A stretch of 64,000 nucleotides of DNA from Escherichia phage ES12, in sequence record MN508614.1. One strand, given 5' to 3'. The notes under the pieces were generated by a model that saw only the letters and a list, made by a program, of their open reading frames with translations, was not told the origin of the DNA and searched no databases. Shown here one piece after another: positions 26,816 to 58,900 of the stretch (the first letter of the stretch is position 1; every line of letters begins with the position of its first letter). The position numbers were made by a program, and so were the translations under genes.

Positions 26816-26818
26816 CAA

Positions 26819-26848
26819 TGGGGACCTTTCGGTCCCCATATTTTTATT
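26819..26848. terminator. bidirectional terminator between gene 54 and alt.-3-like gene
   Basis: TGGGGACC-TTTC-GGTCCCCA followed by TATTTTTATTT. Confidence 0.8.
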
Positions 26849-27134
26849 TACGGAATGAAATGAAAGCAGCAACTGAAGCAACTAAACTGTCTTCAATATA
26901 AACTTCAATTTTTACCGGAGCTTCTGACTCAAATTTACCTGTTACTACACCCTGAAAAATACTTTCAGTCTGTTCTGGCTTTGAAAAATTTTCAGAAGGA
27001 AAAATTCCGAACTTTTTATCTGTTCCAAAAATTTTGATAAATTCATCGTAAACTGCTTCATTAAAAGCATTATCAGCAGGAATAACGCCTTCAACTACAA
27101 GTTCTTGACCTAAAAAGCGCAAAGAAGATTTCAT
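26844..27134 (-). CDS. hypothetical protein (T4 alt.-3 position)
   Basis: 96 aa ORF preceded by an early-promoter-like module and RBS GAGGAAC. Confidence 0.6.
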   Translation of the reverse strand: MKSSLRFLGQELVVEGVIPADNAFNEAVYDEFIKIFGTDKKFGIFPSENFSKPEQTESIFQGVVTGKFESEAPVKIEVYIEDSLVASVAAFISFRK

Positions 27135-27142
27135 TTTGTGTT

Positions 27143-27195
27143 CCTCATGTTATGTCAGTAAGACTACTATAACACAACACGAGGGACTTGTAAAC
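27143..27195 (-). promoter_or_regulatory. early promoter plus leader module (GTTTAC-N18-TATAGT), copy A, upstream of alt.-3-like gene
   Basis: Minus-strand GTTTACAAGTCCCTCGTGTTGTGTTATAGT followed by leader and RBS; 52-nt match to 43101-43153. Confidence 0.65.
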
Positions 27196-29252
27196 TACAT
27201 CTTGAACTTTTTAGACATTCCGTTGATGTTAACCAAAGAAGCTAAGATTTGAGAAACTTCATTTTCCTCTTCTTTTGATTCTTCTACAAGGAATTGATTA
27301 AATCCAGCCATTGGACGAACTTCACCAGTTTCCATTAGATGGTCTCCATCATATACTGATTCTTCTAATTGTTCAGAAGGAGGAACGATTGTACCTTCGA
27401 TTAGATACTTGTTATAAGCAGTTTCTTTCATAAAGTACGTACTTACTTTATTAATCTTCAGTAAAATTCCACGTGGTAGAATAACTTCAGCTTCTGATGG
27501 AAATCCTGATAAATGACCTGGAACGATAACTTTGATTCGCTCAGCTCCTTTAATTACCATACCCACGCTAGTTTCAGCATCTTCATTAGCATATGTAGAA
27601 TGACTACCCATATGCATCAAATCTTCTGCATCAACGGAACCTTCTCCTTCGCCAGAAAATACTGCGCCAGAATCATCTAGAGCCATATAGTTTTTACCAT
27701 GCTCACCGAAGATATTTGGTTTAAGCGATGTGGATACGAAGTTCTTGAAATAGAACATTTTGTTTTCAATGTTATGACGCAAAGTTTTAAAGGTAACTTC
27801 TTGTCCACGATAAAGCGTAGTTCCTGGAGGAAGAACTGAACCTTTAGCGAATGCAGAATCCAACGTCTCGATGTGCTTAATAGCTCGTTCCATATATTCT
27901 TCACGGGTAGAATCTGGTTTACCCAAAAGGAACGAGTTCATTTCAACATATGAATCTGCACAATAATCTTCAATTACATCAGACTCAGCCTGAGTTAATC
28001 CTTTTGGAGTTACTTCGGTGCTTGCGTATTCATATGCCTGAGCAGCAGATTCATTAATCAATTTATAAATGCCATTCATGACAAATTGAATAATAGCTAC
28101 CTTTTCGTCTGGTGTGGCTTTAGAACCTTTAACCAAATCATTGATAATTTTCTTAATAACATCAAAGCTATTAGAAATATTAATATCAGCGAGATCGCTT
28201 AAAATTTTATCAGTCTTATAATCAAAGAATTCTTTATTCTTTAAATATTCTTGAGAACCTTGATATGTTATATCGCTCTGTAACTTGATAGATGGATCAC
28301 GTAAACGTGCATGGGCTAATGCAATATGATTTCGGAAGCTTTCGAGTTCATAATCACTAGATTTAAAACGAGAAGCGCTTCTCATACCGCCTATAGCTCC
28401 TTTGCTGAAGTTTGAACCAATTTGAATAACGCCAGAGTTCATTGGTCCTTCTGCTTTATACACCGGAACTTTAGATTCAAACTCTTGATATTTCTTAGCA
28501 GCGAAGCTATCACCCTGAAGTGAAGCATCAACAGTAGAATATTGAGCTTGTGCTGCTAATCGACGACTAATTTTAGTTTTCTGAATAACAGCTTGGTCCG
28601 TGCGCTTATCATTTTCTAAAGCAATAGAAGCAGCAACAGCAACAGCTTTAGGAACAGCATTTCCTGTTTTAACGTCTACATAAACATCACCGACCTTTGA
28701 TTCAACTTTTGTGAATAACTCAGTTGAAATAGGAGGTACACCTGTAATGTCTTCTAAATTGGCATTTTTACGGTAAACCATAATATATGCATATTTCTTA
28801 TCATAGTCCCAGATTTCCTTTAAAAGAACATATCGACCTGCTCCTTTAGTACGTACTAAACGGTCAGCAATAACTTGCATTTGACGAGCTGCGCCATTTG
28901 TTTTACTTTTTATTACGCGGAATAGGCATGCGTCGATTTTATACTGTTTCATTGTTTGAAGAGCAGTATCAAAAACGGCATTAATGACACCAATTGGATT
29001 TCCACCCAAGTTTTTAAGCTTAACTAATGATAGTTTCTCATTAACACCTATCATTACGATATGCATCATTTTATCGCCTGGCTTAACGTTTTTATTCGTA
29101 TCACCACCAGAGGTATATGTACAAAATCTAAATCCAGGAAGCACGCTTTCTTCGCCGGCTTGAATAGCAAAAATTTGTGGTATTTTATGCTTAGGATTTA
29201 AGTTAACAACCGGCGCCGAAGCGCCGTCAAATAATTCTGTAATAAGTTCCAT
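27195..29252 (-). CDS. Alt-like ADP-ribosyltransferase paralog (putative second capsid-packaged ART)
   Basis: 685 aa; N-terminal about 230 aa and C-terminal ART domain align with the adjacent Alt (MELITELFD..., TLYRGQ, FVSTSL, EAEVILPRG); central region divergent. Confidence 0.85.
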   Translation of the reverse strand: MELITELFDGASAPVVNLNPKHKIPQIFAIQAGEESVLPGFRFCTYTSGGDTNKNVKPGDKMMHIVMIGVNEKLSLVKLKNLGGNPIGVINAVFDTALQTMKQYKIDACLFRVIKSKTNGAARQMQVIADRLVRTKGAGRYVLLKEIWDYDKKYAYIMVYRKNANLEDITGVPPISTELFTKVESKVGDVYVDVKTGNAVPKAVAVAASIALENDKRTDQAVIQKTKISRRLAAQAQYSTVDASLQGDSFAAKKYQEFESKVPVYKAEGPMNSGVIQIGSNFSKGAIGGMRSASRFKSSDYELESFRNHIALAHARLRDPSIKLQSDITYQGSQEYLKNKEFFDYKTDKILSDLADINISNSFDVIKKIINDLVKGSKATPDEKVAIIQFVMNGIYKLINESAAQAYEYASTEVTPKGLTQAESDVIEDYCADSYVEMNSFLLGKPDSTREEYMERAIKHIETLDSAFAKGSVLPPGTTLYRGQEVTFKTLRHNIENKMFYFKNFVSTSLKPNIFGEHGKNYMALDDSGAVFSGEGEGSVDAEDLMHMGSHSTYANEDAETSVGMVIKGAERIKVIVPGHLSGFPSEAEVILPRGILLKINKVSTYFMKETAYNKYLIEGTIVPPSEQLEESVYDGDHLMETGEVRPMAGFNQFLVEESKEEENEVSQILASLVNINGMSKKFKM

Positions 29253-29255
29253 GAT

Positions 29256-31313
29256 TTATCCTTGAACGAACTTGTAAGGCATGTTTGCAATATCTATACA
29301 AGACGCAATAATTCCAAGAGATGATTCTACTTTCTGTTTAACGTTTGATGAAACAAATGATGCAAAGTCAACTCTGTCTTCTATTTCAATATCACCTGTC
29401 ATTGCAACTACTTCGCCGGTTTCCATTAGACGGTCACCGTCATAAATTACCGATTCGGTGAGTTCTTCTGTGGTCATAACTTCAGCTTGAATAAGCTTGT
29501 TGTTAGTTTTAACTGTTCCATCATTGTAAGATGCATCGGTTATTTTATTAACTTTGACCATTAATCCACGTGGCAAAATGACTTCCATTTCATTTGAAGG
29601 TGCTAAACTTCCACCTGGTAAAACAACATTGACTTTATCAGCCCCAGTAATAACCCATCCAATTCCAACTAAATTATCGCTAGAATTTACTAGTCCTTCA
29701 TCAGTTTTATCAATAGAAACACTTAAACGCTTTTCGTCTGGTAAAACACCCACAGATGAATCAGTCATCCAGGTACCAAAAATGTTTGGATATAATGATG
29801 TTGACACAAAATTTCTAAAATAAAAAACTCGATTTTTTACCAGTGCTTCATATATTGAAGGTAACATTCGTTGTGAACGATACAAAGTAATACCTTTTGG
29901 TAATCGTTCACCATTTTTAAAGGCAGAATCTAAATTATCAATAGCTTTTTCTATATCAGATGCTGTCAAAATACTTGTACGCTCATCTGGATTATATAAT
30001 CCCAAAAGAGCGTTATTTATGTCTACATATCCTGAACTTACGTATTCACGAATTCCACGTTTTTGTGCCGGTGTGTATTTAGATGAATCTTTATTTTCGA
30101 CTATAGGATGTAGTGACCATCCAGCGGTAAGAGCATATCCACGCAATTCTCTTCGAATAATCTTTGTTTTTATTGCATTCCAAGAATTTTGTACTAACTC
30201 ATTCGCAGCATCTTGATTTAAATGCGAATGCTTGTTAATGTTTCTTTCTAACCAAGCACCTTTATATTTTTCTAAAGTATCATCAACTATAGAAGCAATA
30301 GTTTCTAAAGTTTTTATTGAAGTAATAGATTCTTTTCGTAATCTTTCTAAAGCTTTATTTTTTATTTCTGCATTAACATCAGATTCTTTATCTTCAGGAA
30401 TTATAGAAGCTTCTCTGAATGCCATTCCAGCTGTAACACTACTAAGAGCATTCTCTAATGCAAATCCTGAAGTAGAAATAACAGTTAATTCATTAGCGTC
30501 AGAAATTAAAGGAGCGTCAGCAGGTTTATTTAATTCTGCTGCTGAAGCCTCAAATTTTTGAAACATCGGCGTTTCAAATCTAGAAGATTCCAATGATTGA
30601 CTTTGCGCAATTGCTCTACGGGAAATTTTAACTTTAACGATTACAGCTTGGTCAGAACGTTTATCATTTTCTTGCGCAATAGATGCTGCAATTGCCTCAT
30701 TTTTAGTTACTTGAGCTCCAGTATCTTTATTGATATAAACATCACCGACCTTCGATTCAACTTTAGTAAAGAGCTCAGTACTAATTTCCGGAACTCCCGG
30801 AATGTCTTCTAGTGATACATTTTTGCGATGTATAAGAATATATGCATACTTTTTATCGTAATCCCAGAGTTCCTTAAGAAGGACGTATCTGCCACCTGAA
30901 CGACTACGGATAAGTCTATCAGCAATAACTTGAATTTGTCGAGCTTGACCAGCGGTTTTAGACTTAAGAATACGAAGCATACAGGCATCAATTTTATACT
31001 GACGCATTGTTTGCATCGCAACAGTAAAAACTGAATTGATATAATTAATTGGGCTTGGACCAAGACCTTTTAATTTAGCAATTGAACCTTTAGCAGTTAA
31101 TGTAAAAGGAACAATATGCATCATTTTATCGCCCATCTTTAAATCGCGATTAGTATCACCTCCAGATGTATAGGTACATAAACGAAAGCCTGGTTGTTCA
31201 ATTGCATCATCAACATGAACTGAAAAAATTTGCGGTATTTTCTTCTTTGGATTTAAGTTTGTAATCGGAAGAGTAGTATCTTCGTCAAATAATTCTGTAA
31301 TAAGTTCCATCAT
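29256..31313 (-). CDS. alt: Alt ADP-ribosyltransferase (packaged, modifies host RNA polymerase)
   Basis: 685 aa; recognised as T4 Alt (MELITELFDEDTTLPITNL...; LYRSQ / STSL / EMEVILPRG motifs); late promoter TATAAATA upstream; true start may be the second Met (31310). Confidence 0.93.
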   Translation of the reverse strand: MMELITELFDEDTTLPITNLNPKKKIPQIFSVHVDDAIEQPGFRLCTYTSGGDTNRDLKMGDKMMHIVPFTLTAKGSIAKLKGLGPSPINYINSVFTVAMQTMRQYKIDACMLRILKSKTAGQARQIQVIADRLIRSRSGGRYVLLKELWDYDKKYAYILIHRKNVSLEDIPGVPEISTELFTKVESKVGDVYINKDTGAQVTKNEAIAASIAQENDKRSDQAVIVKVKISRRAIAQSQSLESSRFETPMFQKFEASAAELNKPADAPLISDANELTVISTSGFALENALSSVTAGMAFREASIIPEDKESDVNAEIKNKALERLRKESITSIKTLETIASIVDDTLEKYKGAWLERNINKHSHLNQDAANELVQNSWNAIKTKIIRRELRGYALTAGWSLHPIVENKDSSKYTPAQKRGIREYVSSGYVDINNALLGLYNPDERTSILTASDIEKAIDNLDSAFKNGERLPKGITLYRSQRMLPSIYEALVKNRVFYFRNFVSTSLYPNIFGTWMTDSSVGVLPDEKRLSVSIDKTDEGLVNSSDNLVGIGWVITGADKVNVVLPGGSLAPSNEMEVILPRGLMVKVNKITDASYNDGTVKTNNKLIQAEVMTTEELTESVIYDGDRLMETGEVVAMTGDIEIEDRVDFASFVSSNVKQKVESSLGIIASCIDIANMPYKFVQG

Positions 31314-35749: not shown

Positions 35750-36082
35750 TTATTTTACTACTTTCCAATGCTGCATGTCAAGTTTACCAACTTTTTTCAT
35801 CTTCTCAATTAAGCGTTCGGCACGTTGGCGAGCTGTAACATAATACCATTCACCTAATTCATTTTGTTCAATTTTTCCAACGATTACTGTATTCAATTCA
35901 TAAATCCAACCAGTAAAGAAATTATGAACTTGAATTGTAAAGGTGAAATCTGTTCCCATACCTTCTGTTGTTTCTACTTCAATAATATCACCTTCAACTG
36001 CCATTAAGAACCACATAGTTTCATCATATTTACCATTGAAGCATTTAGTTTTAACTGCAGCGTTCAGATTAATCGTTTTCAT
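35750..36082 (-). CDS. hypothetical protein
   Basis: 110 aa ORF. Confidence 0.6.
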   Translation of the reverse strand: MKTINLNAAVKTKCFNGKYDETMWFLMAVEGDIIEVETTEGMGTDFTFTIQVHNFFTGWIYELNTVIVGKIEQNELGEWYYVTARQRAERLIEKMKKVGKLDMQHWKVVK

Positions 36083-36193
36083 TTTATTCTCCTTTGTTTG
36101 TGTAAGATAATACTATCACAAAGGAACCATACTGTAAACAACTTTATGCAATCTTTGGAAAATGAAAAAAGGACTCCCGAAGGAGTCCTCAAC

Positions 36194-42248: not shown

Positions 42249-42598
42249 TTAGAAAGGTCCTGGATGTCTTCTGCGAACTTGTTGAAGGAGTTGTTGATTT
42301 GTTTTTCAACCAATCCTGGCTTACGAGCCACCACATCCGCCTTCTTTGCATCTTTGCGCAGTTTTTCATTTTCACGCTCAATAGCAGCAATCGCCTCACG
42401 ATTTTTATTATTCATCGCATCAATATAATTATACTGAATTCGCAAATTATTTAATGCTAAGGCGTTTTCATTGGCCGTTTTTGTAATTTCTACAACAGAC
42501 GTTTCTAATCTTTCAATTTTATTTTTTAAAATTAAAGAAGTTCCGCCTAATGCAATTACAATTAATAGCAAACCTGCTGTCGTATTACTTAATTGCAT
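42245..42598 (-). CDS. inner-membrane spanin (i-spanin, Rz equivalent)
   Basis: 117 aa; N-terminal TM helix GLLLIVIALGGTSLIL followed by charged coiled-coil region. Confidence 0.7.
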   Translation of the reverse strand: MQLSNTTAGLLLIVIALGGTSLILKNKIERLETSVVEITKTANENALALNNLRIQYNYIDAMNNKNREAIAAIERENEKLRKDAKKADVVARKPGLVEKQINNSFNKFAEDIQDLSK

Positions 42599-43095
42599 AA
42601 AGTTTTAATAACCTCTATAATATCGTCTTGAGAAAGACCGTTAATTAAAATATGATGTTCAGCCGGAGATTTAGAAATTTTAAAGCATGCCTCAACATCT
42701 TCTGCCATATCCGATGCGCTACGATTTGGATTACTAATTCCAAGACGATGTTTTCCCGTTAAAGGATTAACGATGATATAGCATTTACAGCTATTGATAT
42801 GAACATTAGGTTGAGTCTGATTAATAAACACTTCACAATCATACTTAGCGAGTTGATTTTCTAAAAAGACTTTCATCTCCTCAACCGCATCAGGAAGCAT
42901 ATCACGGGCTTGCTCAAGACGACGATTTCGATATTCTTTAATGGTCGTTTTCCGCTTGACTTGCTTAGCTAAATCTTTCTTAAGATCGGTGATATATCCA
43001 ACTCGACGATTTCCTTTGAATACAAAAATCCCATCTGTAGTATCACCGTATGCTTCAACGACCATTTCAGTAGTAATGAGCTGCAAATCCATCAT
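42589..43095 (-). CDS. alc: Alc, inhibitor of host transcription on cytosine DNA
   Basis: 168 aa ORF at the T4 alc position, upstream of spanins and downstream of rnlA; preceded by early-promoter module. Confidence 0.75.
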   Translation of the reverse strand: MMDLQLITTEMVVEAYGDTTDGIFVFKGNRRVGYITDLKKDLAKQVKRKTTIKEYRNRRLEQARDMLPDAVEEMKVFLENQLAKYDCEVFINQTQPNVHINSCKCYIIVNPLTGKHRLGISNPNRSASDMAEDVEACFKISKSPAEHHILINGLSQDDIIEVIKTLCN

Positions 43096-43100
43096 AAAGT

Positions 43101-43153
43101 CCTCATGTTATGTCAGTAAGACTACTGTAACACAACACGAGGGACTTGTAAAC
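43101..43153 (-). promoter_or_regulatory. early promoter plus leader module, copy B, upstream of alc
   Basis: Same 52-nt sequence with one mismatch (-10 TTACAGT). Confidence 0.65.
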
Positions 43154-43156
43154 AGC

Positions 43157-44744
<1,588 letters not shown>

Positions 44745-51262: not shown

Positions 51263-51292
51263 ATAGTATCACACTACTACCCTTCTGTAAAC
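51263..51292 (-). promoter_or_regulatory. early promoter (GTTTAC-N18-TACTAT) upstream of frd.2-like gene
   Basis: Minus-strand GTTTACAGAAGGGTAGTAGTGTGATACTAT. Confidence 0.5.
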
Positions 51293-55861: not shown

Positions 55862-55893
55862 CTATTATATACTATCTAAATCTTAAAGTAAAC
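55862..55893 (-). promoter_or_regulatory. early promoter (GTTTAC-N18-TATAAT) for rnh
   Basis: Minus-strand GTTTACTTTAAGATTTAGATAGTATATAAT upstream of rnh RBS. Confidence 0.6.
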
Positions 55894-55938: not shown

Positions 55939-58900
55939 ATGGCCGAGATTAAAAGAAAGTTCAGAGCAGAAGATGGTCTGGACGCAGGTGGCGATAAAAT
56001 AATCAACGTAGCTTTAGCTGATCGTACCGTAGGAACTGACGGTGTTAACGTTGATTACTTAATTCAAGAAAACACAGTTCAGCAATATGATCCAACTCGT
56101 GGATATTTAAAAGATTTTGTAATCATTTATAATAATCGTTTTTGGGCAGCAACGGATAATATTCCAAAACCTGCTGGAAATTTTAATAGAATTCGTTGGA
56201 AAGCATTACGTACTGATGCCGTATATACAACCGTATCATCTGGACCATATCAATTAAAATCCGGAGAAGCAATTTCAGTAGATACATCAGTTGGCAATGA
56301 CATTGAGTTTACTTTACCACCTTCTCCGCTTGATGGAGAAACCGTAATAATTCAAGATATCGGTGGAAAACCTGGCATAAATCAGGTTAAAATAAATTCT
56401 TCAAATCAGAGTATTGTCAATTTTAGAGGTGAACAGGTACGTTCAGTTTTAATGACTCATCCAAAGTCACAGATGGTATTCATTTTTAATAATCGTTTGT
56501 GGCAAATGTATATTGCTGATTATAGCAGAGAAGCTGCGATTGTTACTCCATCGACTGCATATCAAGCACAATCTAATGATTTTATCGTACGTAGATTTAC
56601 TTCTGCCGCACCGATTAATGTTAAACTTCCAAGATTTGCCAATCATGGAGATATCATTAATTTCGTTGATTTAGATAAATTAAATCCACTTTATCATACA
56701 ATTGTCACGACATATGATGAAACAACTTCAGTACAAGAAGTTGGAACTCATTCCATTGAAGGCCGTACATCGATTGACGGTTTCTTGATGTTTGATGATA
56801 GTGAAAAATTATGGAGATTGTTTGACGGGGATAGTAAAGCACGTTTACGCATTATAACGACTAATTCAAACATTCGTCCAAATGAAGAAGTTATGGTATT
56901 TGGTGCGAATAATGGAACAACTCAAACGATTGAACTTCAGCTTCCAACTAATATTTCTGTTGGTGATACTGTTAAAATTTCCATGAATTACATGAGAAAA
57001 GGACAAACAGTTAAAATCAAAGCTGCCGGTGAAGATAAAATTGCTTCTTCAGTTCAATTGCTGCAATTCCCAAAACGCTCAGAATATCCACCTGAAGCTG
57101 AATGGGTGACTGTTCAAGAATTAGTTTTTAACGGTGAAACTAATTATGTTCCAGTTTTACAGCTTGCTTATATTGAAGATTCTGACGGAAAATACTGGGT
57201 AGTACAACAAAACGTTCCAACAGTTGAAAGAGTCGATTCTTTAAATAATTCTACTAGAGCAAGATTAGGCGTAATTGCTTTAGCTACACAAGCCCAAGCT
57301 AACGTCGATTTAGAAAATTCTCCACAAAAAGAATTAGCAATTACTCCAGAAACATTAGCTAACCGTACTGCTACAGAAACTCGTAGAGGTATCGCAAGAA
57401 TAGCAACTACTGCTCAAGTAAATCAGAACACTACATTCTCTTTTGCTGATGACCTTATCATCACTCCTAAAAAGCTGAATGAAAGAACTGCTACAGAAAC
57501 TCGTAGAGGTGTTGCTGAAATTGCTACGCAGCAGGAAACTAATACAGGTATCGATGATACTACAATCATCACTCCTAAAAAGCTTCAAGCTCGTCAAGGT
57601 TCTGAATCATTATCAGGTATTGTAACTTTTGTATCTACCGCAGGAGCTACCCCAGCTTCTAGTCGTGAATTAAATGGTACAAATGTTTACAATAAAAACA
57701 CTAATAATTTAGTTGTTTCGCCTAAAGCACTGGATCAGTATAAAGCTACTCCAACACAGCAAGGTGCAGTAATTTTAGCAGTTGAAAGTGAAGTAATTGC
57801 TGGACAAAGCCAAGAAGGATGGGCAAATGCGGTTGTAACGCCAGAAACGTTACATAAAAAGACATCAACTGATGGAAGAATTGGTTTAATTGAAATTGCT
57901 ACGCAAAGTGAAGTTAATACAGGAACTGATTATACTCGCGCAGTCACTCCTAAAACTTTAAATGACCGTAGAGCAACTGAAAGTTTAAGTGGTATAGCTG
58001 AAATTGCTACACAAGTTGAATTCGACGCAGGCGTCGACGATACTCGTATCTCTACACCATTAAAAATTAAAACTAGATTTAATAGTACTGATCGTACTTC
58101 TGTTGTTGCTCTATCTGGATTAGTTGAATCAGGAACTCTCTGGGACCATTATACCCTTAATATTCTTGAAGCAAATGAGACACAGCGTGGTACACTTCGT
58201 GTAGCTACACAAGTTGAAGCTGCTGCAGGAACATTAGATAATGTTTTAATAACTCCTAAAAAGCTTTTAGGTACTAAATCTACCGAATCGCAAGAAGGTG
58301 TTATTAAAGTTGCAACTCAGTCTGAAACCGTGACTGGAACGTCAGCAAATACTGCTGTATCTCCAAAAAATTTAAAATGGATTGTGCAGAGTGAACCTAC
58401 TTGGGCAGCTACTACTGCGATAAGAGGTTTTGTTAAAACCTCATCTGGTTCAATTACGTTCGTTGGTAATGATACAGCTGGTTCTACGCAGGACTTAGAA
58501 CTATATGAGAAAAATGGTTATGCAGTATCACCATATGAATTAAACCGTGTATTAGCAAATTATTTGCCGTTAAAAGCAAAAGCTGCTGACGCAAATTTAT
58601 TAGATGGTCTAGATTCATCTCAGTTCATTCGTAGGGATATTGCCCAGACAGTTAATGGTTCACTAACCTTAACCAAACAAACGAACCTGAGTGCCCCTCT
58701 TGTATCATCTAGTACTGCTACGTTTGGTGGATCAGTTTCAGCAAATAGTACATTAACTATTTCTAATACTGGAACGGCAACTCGTCTGATTTTTGAGAAA
58801 GGACCTCAAACTGGAACAAACCCAGCTCAAACGATGACAGTCAGAGTGTGGGGAAATCAATTTAGTGGGGAATCAGACACAACACGTTCTACCGTATTTG

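Follow-up and report, generated by a model that had tools for sequence, protein, structure and literature searches.

A near-identical intergenic cassette upstream of alc and alt.-3 in T4-like phages combines a putative early promoter with a hairpin predicted to mask the ribosome-binding site

T4-type phages are known to carry promoter-early stem-loop (PeSL) cassettes, intergenic modules that join a σ70-type early promoter to a stable stem-loop (Arbiol et al., 2010, PMC2839356; Comeau et al., 2014, PMC4122927). The gating of translation by a promoter that lies inside a hairpin has been described for the T4 genes e (lysozyme), soc, 49 and I-TevI (Uzan and Miller, 2010, PMC3014915), and intergenic hairpins mask the ribosome-binding site (RBS) of the free-standing homing endonuclease genes mobE of phage Aeh1 and segB of T4 (PMC3014915). 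T4 early promoters, for their part, have UP, -35, TGn and -10 elements in common (PMC2988021). Here we describe a short intergenic repeat of Escherichia phage ES12 that has features of several of these systems, and ask how it compares with them.

We analysed a window of 64,000 nucleotides from ES12 (sequence record MN508614.1), a Tequatrovirus (T4-like phage) sequence. Over the stretch that was tested, a sequence search showed 100% identity to Escherichia phage ES26 and 95–99% identity to hundreds of T4-like phages. A repeat search of the window returned a 54-nt repeat at 27142-27195 and 43100-43153 in which 53 of 54 positions are identical, the sole mismatch being A at 27169 versus G at 43127. 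The original prediction, made from the letters of the sequence, had placed a near-identical pair at 27143-27195 and 43101-43153; the pair is real, has a single mismatch and is one base longer. It is the window's only long near-identical intergenic repeat. A search with the cassette sequence allowing three mismatches recovered exactly these two sites, and a cassette match was found in none of 100 dinucleotide-preserving shuffles. The minus strand of the window contains eight GTTTAC-type early-promoter cassettes, and when 54 nt of each were anchored at the -35 element, pairwise identities ranged from 0.30 to 0.72 (0.72 being the maximum among the other 27 pairs) versus 0.98 for the pair upstream of alc and alt.-3. 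The original prediction would have fallen had the identity been no higher than among other early promoters of the genome, and it survived this comparison. The repeat is a general property of the genus: T4 itself has both copies, with a single mismatch of its own that differs from that of ES12, and we found 997 cassette places in 499 Tequatrovirus records, that is, two per genome. Identical intergenic modules in T4-like genomes are thus not necessarily assembly errors. A pattern scan of IMG/VR for the two arms of the hairpin described below found only seven T4-like loci and two chance matches (L004, L006), a yield too small for population work, and a literature search with the cassette sequence returned unrelated papers only.

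Both copies are on the minus strand and are matched by a covariance model. Copy 1 (27142-27195) fills the 60-nt gap between an intact Alt paralog, an ADP-ribosyltransferase of 685 aa (27195-29252, minus strand; Pfam), and alt.-3, the gene that it serves, which encodes a DUF5498 protein of 96 aa (26844-27134, minus strand; Pfam). Copy 1 overlaps the TAG that stops the Alt paralog (27195-27197) by one base, the G with which GTTTAC starts, and 7 nt separate its other end from the alt.-3 ATG. Copy 2 (43100-43153) fills the 61-nt gap between rnlA, encoding RNA ligase 1 (43157-44317, minus strand; Pfam T4 Rnl1), and alc (42589-43095, minus strand; Pfam ALC). It begins 3 nt past the rnlA stop codon (43157-43159) and ends 4–7 nt before the alc ATG. 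There are two adjacent ATGs in alc, of which the T4 annotation uses the second (43090-43092 in the window), and in phage REP3 the first is replaced by ATA. The names alt.-3 and alc, as originally assigned from the sequence, are correct by Pfam.

Several features of the surroundings deserve mention. Downstream of alt.-3, between the convergent genes 54 and alt.-3, lies a perfect 9-bp GC-rich palindrome, ATGGGGACC TTTC GGTCCCCAT (26818-26839), which is terminator-like on both strands; with such a bidirectional terminator at its end, alt.-3 would form a monocistronic early unit of about 350 nt. On the other side, two full-length 685-aa genes of Alt-type ADP-ribosyltransferases are arranged in tandem (27195-29252 and 29256-31313, minus strand). 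In T4, the second Alt-type gene is reduced to the fragments alt.-1 and alt.-2; the deletion spared the cassette, and the annotated T4 alt.-2 ORF extends into it. Direct repeats of another sort, 29–68 nt long and 66–79% identical (families D2 and D5), occur at 57340-58265 on the plus strand, where they are spaced in multiples of three and look internal to a coding region.

Read on the minus strand, the cassette has the form G-TTTACA-AGTCCCTCGTGTTGTGT-TATAGT-AGTCTTACTGACATAACAT-GAGGA. A scan for the σ70 consensus gave, for copy 1, the -35 element TTTACA (GTTTAC in T4 notation) at 27189-27194 and an extended -10 element, TGT plus TATAGT, at 27166-27174, and for copy 2, TTTACA at 43147-43152 and TGT plus TACAGT at 43124-43132 (all minus strand), in both cases with a spacer of 17 nt and a TG before the -10. 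The consensus score is 10/12 for copy 1 and 9/12 for copy 2, and the single mismatch between the copies is the third base of the -10. The original prediction had parsed it as GTTTAC, 18 nt and TTATAGT, which is how this site is written in T4 notation. The sequence also fits the T4 early consensus GTTTAC(N14)gtggTAttaT quoted in a depositor's annotation, and by this match both copies appear to carry an immediate-early promoter of σ70 type. Promoter geometry would put transcription start at 27159 in copy 1, the A of CTTAC, 7 nt past the -10, and at 43117 in copy 2 (both minus strand). A middle promoter was rejected by inspection, there being no TGCTT MotA box, and so was a late promoter, there being no TATAAATA. 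The T4 GenBank and RefSeq records have no promoter feature at either cassette, and our literature search found neither a genome-wide map of T4 start sites nor any start-site, toeprint or reporter data on the two cassettes.

At each copy, the RNA of the coding strand folds into a 14-bp hairpin of -22 to -29 kcal/mol (-23 and -28.6 kcal/mol with flanks), with z-scores of -3.8 and -5.8 and none of 200 shuffles folding as stably. In copy 1, the 5' arm CCTCGTGTTGTGTT (27171-27184) is made of promoter spacer plus one base of the -10, its first, and the 3' arm GACATAACATGAGG (27143-27156) includes the GAGG core of the SD sequence GAGGA (27142-27146). Folding placed the arms of copy 2 at 43129-43142 and 43101-43114, the latter again including the GAGG core of its SD sequence (43100-43104; all minus strand). 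In cassette coordinates, positions 12-25 pair with positions 40-53; positions 12-24 are promoter spacer, the -10 begins at 25 and the GAGG core takes up 50-53. The original prediction had described a promoter and an RBS, and had suggested that the transcribed leader is under selection because identity extends well beyond the promoter hexamers. The leader proposal fits what we found, since the spacer pairs with the SD region in a conserved hairpin, of which each forms one arm, and this accounts for the identity beyond the hexamers; the hairpin itself, the main explanatory feature, had been missed.

The -10 (positions 25-30) and the expected start (position 37, the A of CTTAC) fall in the loop region of the hairpin. 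As the 5' arm is at positions 12-25, any start downstream of the -10 leaves this arm out of the transcript, and without it the ribosome-binding site should be cheap to open. Indeed, the predicted cost of opening the ribosome-binding region is 3.7–4.8 kcal/mol in RNA from the cassette's own promoter versus 15.7–23.2 kcal/mol in read-through RNA. For alc, the predicted probability that the SD sequence is unpaired is 0.71 in the own-promoter RNA versus 0.025 in read-through RNA. The GAGG core is predicted to be unpaired with a probability of at most 0.025 in read-through RNA of both copies, and the trailing A of the SD sequence of copy 1 to be largely unpaired in such RNA (0.93). In the own-promoter RNA of alt.-3, the SD sequence is predicted to pair weakly with the coding region (unpaired probability 0.11), at an opening cost of only 3.2 kcal/mol.

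Alc homologs are widespread in Tevenvirinae, and we compared the rnlA-alc gaps of six annotated genomes and 38 IMG/VR loci. The architecture is kept in at least 10 Tevenvirinae lineages according to a common plan: an upstream stop codon, GTTTACA, a 5' arm of 9–14 nt directly after the -35, a loop with the -10, the SD sequence as 3' arm, 4–9 nt and ATG. This plan is found in Karamvirus, Jiaodavirus, Dhakavirus, Moonvirus and others, with Alc proteins 46–60% identical. The arms vary between lineages and match each other within each lineage, as in the pairs TCTCCATTTGG and CCAAATGGAGA, TCCTCATCAG and CTGATGAGGA, TCCTCATTTTGTTG and CAACAAAATGAGGA, CCTCTCGTTTTTG and CAAAAACGAGAGG, and TCTCCTCAT and ATGAGGAGA (5' arm and 3' arm, respectively). 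Both MAFFT and covariance-model alignments of the alc gaps left the arms of different lineages out of register, and counts of column covariation were therefore replaced by an energy test in which arms were swapped among 10 lineages. Cognate arms gave a mean of -18.8 kcal/mol versus -10.2 kcal/mol for non-cognate arms, and none of 100,000 permutations was as good, in a statistic that ignores kinship (the 5' arm of L048 is also that of Dhakavirus, and L032 is a close relative of L046). The paired strands thus covary across relatives at the alc locus.

Not all alc gaps follow the plan. In three lineages (L042, L056, L050) the hairpin encloses the -10 and stops just short of the SD sequence, and Mosigvirus and two other lineages have an alc gap with a small hairpin in the spacer only. 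Masking of the SD sequence is thus not universal at alc, and the hairpin may serve a different or a further function. In Gaprivervirus (L015, L033, L034, L060), a terminator and an ORF made of an alc fragment lie between rnlA and alc. The third copy in phage G28 (L070, NC_054916.1) was rejected as a transposed cassette; it stems from a 351-bp tandem duplication, at 27844-28248, that extends from the 3' end of rnlA through the cassette to about codon 47 of alc. With alc fragments in both G28 and Gaprivervirus, the rnlA-alc junction seems prone to duplication.

The reading we favour, with moderate confidence, is that the repeat represents two copies of a T4-type cassette in which an early promoter is nested within an SD-masking hairpin, copied from alc to alt.-3. 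According to this model, the promoter spacer would serve as the 5' arm of the RNA hairpin and the SD region as its 3' arm. Transcripts from the cassette's own promoter, starting at the predicted +1 in the loop, would lack the 5' arm and have an open ribosome-binding site, and read-through transcripts from rnlA or the Alt paralog would carry both arms and have the SD sequence locked in the 14-bp helix. Translation of alc and alt.-3 would then likely come essentially from their own early-promoter transcripts only, confining synthesis to the early period. The alc product is a factor that stops host transcription on cytosine DNA, and the timing of its synthesis therefore matters to the phage.

Published T4 expression data agree with an independent early promoter and uncoupled translation, in classes that are assigned at gene level with transcript isoforms pooled. 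In a motA amber infection, alc and alt.-3 go up 1.61-fold and 2.38-fold, like genes with early promoters, and rnlA goes down, to 0.68-fold (PMC6024815 Table S1). Likewise, in a time-resolved omics study alc and alt.-3 are classed as early RNA and early protein, rnlA as early RNA and late protein, and alt.-1/-2 as middle RNA (PMC9697503 supplement). From the counts in PMC6024815 Table S1, we computed that at 5 min the read density in T4 falls from ~21 reads/nt in rnlA to ~13 reads/nt in alc, despite the extra promoter between them.

This fall in RNA past rnlA is also what one would look for if the hairpin were mainly a transcription attenuator, a terminator or a 3'-end stabiliser of the upstream unit, with the SD sequence in its 3' arm by coincidence. 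Such a function is the strongest rival to the reading above, and although we think it unlikely, it has precedent, as one PeSL stem-loop cut read-through into lacZ as strongly as rrnB T1 (PMC2839356). It would also suit the hairpins that enclose the -10 without touching the SD sequence, as seen in most of the other cassettes of the window and in the three exceptional alc lineages named above. The RNA drop, however, is expected under masking as well, since RNA that is not translated lies open to Rho and to decay. In addition, a terminator scan found nothing at either copy, and neither stem is followed by a U-tract. In 10 lineages the 3' arm coincides exactly with the SD sequence, and the 5' arm is an anti-SD-like run of CCTC or CTCC, for which a pure terminator would have no need. 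Masking and attenuation can coexist.

To see how the cassette varies within Tequatrovirus, we drew a sample from about 15 genomes and recovered 11 distinct versions from both loci, all of which fold at -17 to -25 kcal/mol. The -35 and nearly the whole 3' arm are invariant among the 11 versions; the variable sites are in the 5' arm, at bases three and five of the -10 and in the loop. Across versions, pairing is kept in 99.4% of helix cells. One-sided changes that leave the pair intact were seen at four pairs (C-G>U.G, G.U>A-U, G.U>G-C and U.G>U-A), with wobble pairs that fit the RNA of the coding strand, and one terminal helix pair is lost in copy 1 of phage ZN18. We found no two-sided compensatory changes among the Tequatrovirus versions, and the corresponding shuffle control was not significant (366/500); variation within the genus is compatible with the masking model but does not decide in its favour.

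These data also bear on whether the identity of the copies merely reflects a recent duplication or ongoing gene conversion, with only the hexamers and the SD sequence being functional. In favour of this view, the two copies within a genome are identical at 48/54 to 54/54 positions, and a haplotype of two substitutions, TATAATAATC, is present at both loci, namely in both G28 copies, in copy 1 of ZN18 and in copy 2 of REP3, which hints at occasional exchange between the loci. Both copies are found in all 499 Tequatrovirus records, however, which makes the duplication old. The copies also diverge independently (48/54 identical in phiC600P9 and 50/54 in ZN18), with pairing kept in all helix substitutions but one, and at the alc locus covariation of the helix extends over several genera. 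Identity explained by duplication or conversion in this way is thus improbable, and strictly concerted evolution of the copies was rejected, as up to 6 of 54 positions differ within one genome. In the masking model, purifying selection acting on the -35, the helix and the SD sequence would be the main force that has kept the copies near-identical.

The original prediction had further offered a duplicated or recombined regulatory cassette, and this part is borne out by the comparison of the two gaps across genera. The alc-type cassette is ancestral between rnlA and alc in many genera. The alt.-3 gap is different in Gaprivervirus, Dhakavirus, Mosigvirus, Marfavirus and Karamvirus, five genera in which it has a GTTTACA promoter, a short hairpin within the spacer and a free SD sequence. 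The alt.-3 copy of Tequatrovirus is therefore the secondary one, and the cassette was probably copied from alc into the alt.-3 gap in the ancestor of the genus. The borders of the replaced segment match orthologous alt.-3 gaps, its left border being GTTTACAAG and its right border ACATGAGGAA.ACAAAATGAAATC, from which we infer a recombination between short shared end sequences, GTTTACAAG on the left and ACATGAGGA on the right, of the kind proposed for PeSL cassettes. In Mosigvirus, the ndd.1 leader (L002 1480-1545, L003 1480-1540) shares TATAGTAGTC.TACTGA..ACATGAGGAACACAAAATG with the Tequatrovirus alt.-3 leader, with a different stem (GTAGGA/TCCTAC) and before a different gene, which suggests that leader segments are common to several genera and loci. 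The Mosigvirus alc gap (L016, L047) has no SD-masking hairpin and resembles the spacer-hairpin type of alt.-3 gap (L021). This may reflect a replacement in the reverse direction, but the identity of 0.75–0.79 is not clearly above the background of 0.66–0.78, and we do not argue for homogenisation of alc and alt.-3 in Mosigvirus.

A nuclease or regulator site, given as an example in the original prediction, fared less well. If the shared leader were the binding or cleavage site of a phage protein, RegB endoribonuclease, RegA or another regulator could be considered; T4 RegB is known to cleave early mRNAs within SD sequences (PMC2988021), and its target GGAG is present in the 3' arm of several alc orthologs from other genera. 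The T4-type SD sequence is GAGGA, however, and with no GGAG in the T4-type leader a RegB site was rejected. We found no protein-binding motif in the cassette and no match to an Rfam family anywhere in the window, and across genera it is the match between the arms that has been kept, and not a sequence motif of the leader. Such a site is a still poorer candidate than duplication or conversion. Lastly, a chance resemblance among strong early promoters with an extended consensus has in its favour the elements that T4 early promoters have in common (PMC2988021) and the 0.65–0.72 reached by other pairs in the window, but it is already refuted by the identity of 0.98 and the absence of shuffle matches, and we give it practically no credence.

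We also looked at the other GTTTAC cassettes of the window. A cassette of unrelated sequence upstream of gene 30.8 (36080-36139, minus strand; L001 10252-10311 in T4) has the same plan as that at alc: GTTTAC, a spacer arm TTCCTTTGT that pairs with the SD sequence, ACAAAGGAG, and the -10 in the loop. Further GTTTAC early promoters on the minus strand have their -35 at 55892, 51291, 39831 (cd.2) and 35746, and those at 51291 and 39831, which are 72% identical, are the next most similar pair. In most of these other cassettes, the arms of an inverted repeat (GGTAGAG...CTCTACC; GGTACAGG...CCTGTACC) flank the -10 and the SD sequence is free.

A bolder proposal, to which we incline rather less than to its opposite, is that early promoters within SD-masking hairpins are a distinct, portable module for early-only translation in Tevenvirinae, with the internal promoter as the sole source of translatable alc, alt.-3 and 30.8 mRNA. 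If so, a single recombination step with a 54-nt cassette would move both the timing of transcription and a block to read-through translation, and such cassettes would be units of regulatory evolution, beyond being recombination hot spots or terminators. The masking model by itself would mean that T4 restricts the synthesis of Alc and Alt.-3 to the first minutes of infection without a repressor, extending a classic trick of T4 late genes to early genes by the layout of promoter and hairpin alone. The pair would also be a clean example of a whole regulatory module copied between unrelated genes, and on the practical side, the 54-nt cassette could be a compact part combining a strong promoter with insulation from upstream translation.

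How does the locus compare with the described systems? DNA ligase (gene 30) and the co-chaperonin (gene 31), which lie between the two copies, are essential in T4. This distinguishes the pair from typical PeSL arrangements, as the copies flank 16 kb including these genes and not a small ORFan module, and we found no mini-circle or indel associated with the two copies. In other respects the likeness is close. Like PeSLs (PMC2839356, PMC4122927), both copies are intergenic modules that run from an upstream stop codon to a downstream SD sequence and start codon, and both have a stable stem-loop overlapping the -10 box of a σ70-type early promoter, here recognized by sequence match. Relative to the T4/PST consensus TTTACW-N17-TAYWAT, copy 1 departs at G only and copy 2, with TACAGT, at two positions. 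Again like PeSLs, which recur within one genome and are implicated in exchange between loci, one cassette stands before two unrelated genes, in Tequatrovirus only, and the cassette appears to have moved without its flanking ORFs. The PeSL stem-loops, however, have been read as terminators or attenuators, and those of the T4/PST pair are placed just upstream of the promoter, whereas here the 3' arm is the SD sequence, no U-tract follows, and the arms covary with the SD sequence across genera. The searched text of the two PeSL papers makes no mention of alc or alt.-3.

The masking of an RBS by an intergenic hairpin in a gene co-transcribed with its upstream neighbour is shared with Aeh1 mobE and T4 segB (PMC3014915). 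There, however, the hairpin keeps endonuclease expression low, it has no early promoter core, and there is no sequence relationship to the cassette. The likeness to e, soc, 49 and I-TevI goes further (PMC3014915): the SD sequence is sequestered in a helix of long read-through transcripts, a promoter located within the 5' strand of that helix, or above it, yields transcripts that are free of the inhibitory arm and can be translated (both predicted for the cassette), and related phages keep the structure. The internal promoter of those genes is late (TATAAATA), and their gate holds translation back until late in infection, whereas the alc and alt.-3 cassettes have no such element and carry an early promoter of σ70 type, so that the predicted effect is early-only translation. 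By analogy, the cassette would be the mirror image of the e/soc/49/I-TevI gate, at most an early-promoter variant of that mechanism. The cassette is thus real and conserved, and belongs to a type of phage regulatory cassette that is already known, without being new in kind.
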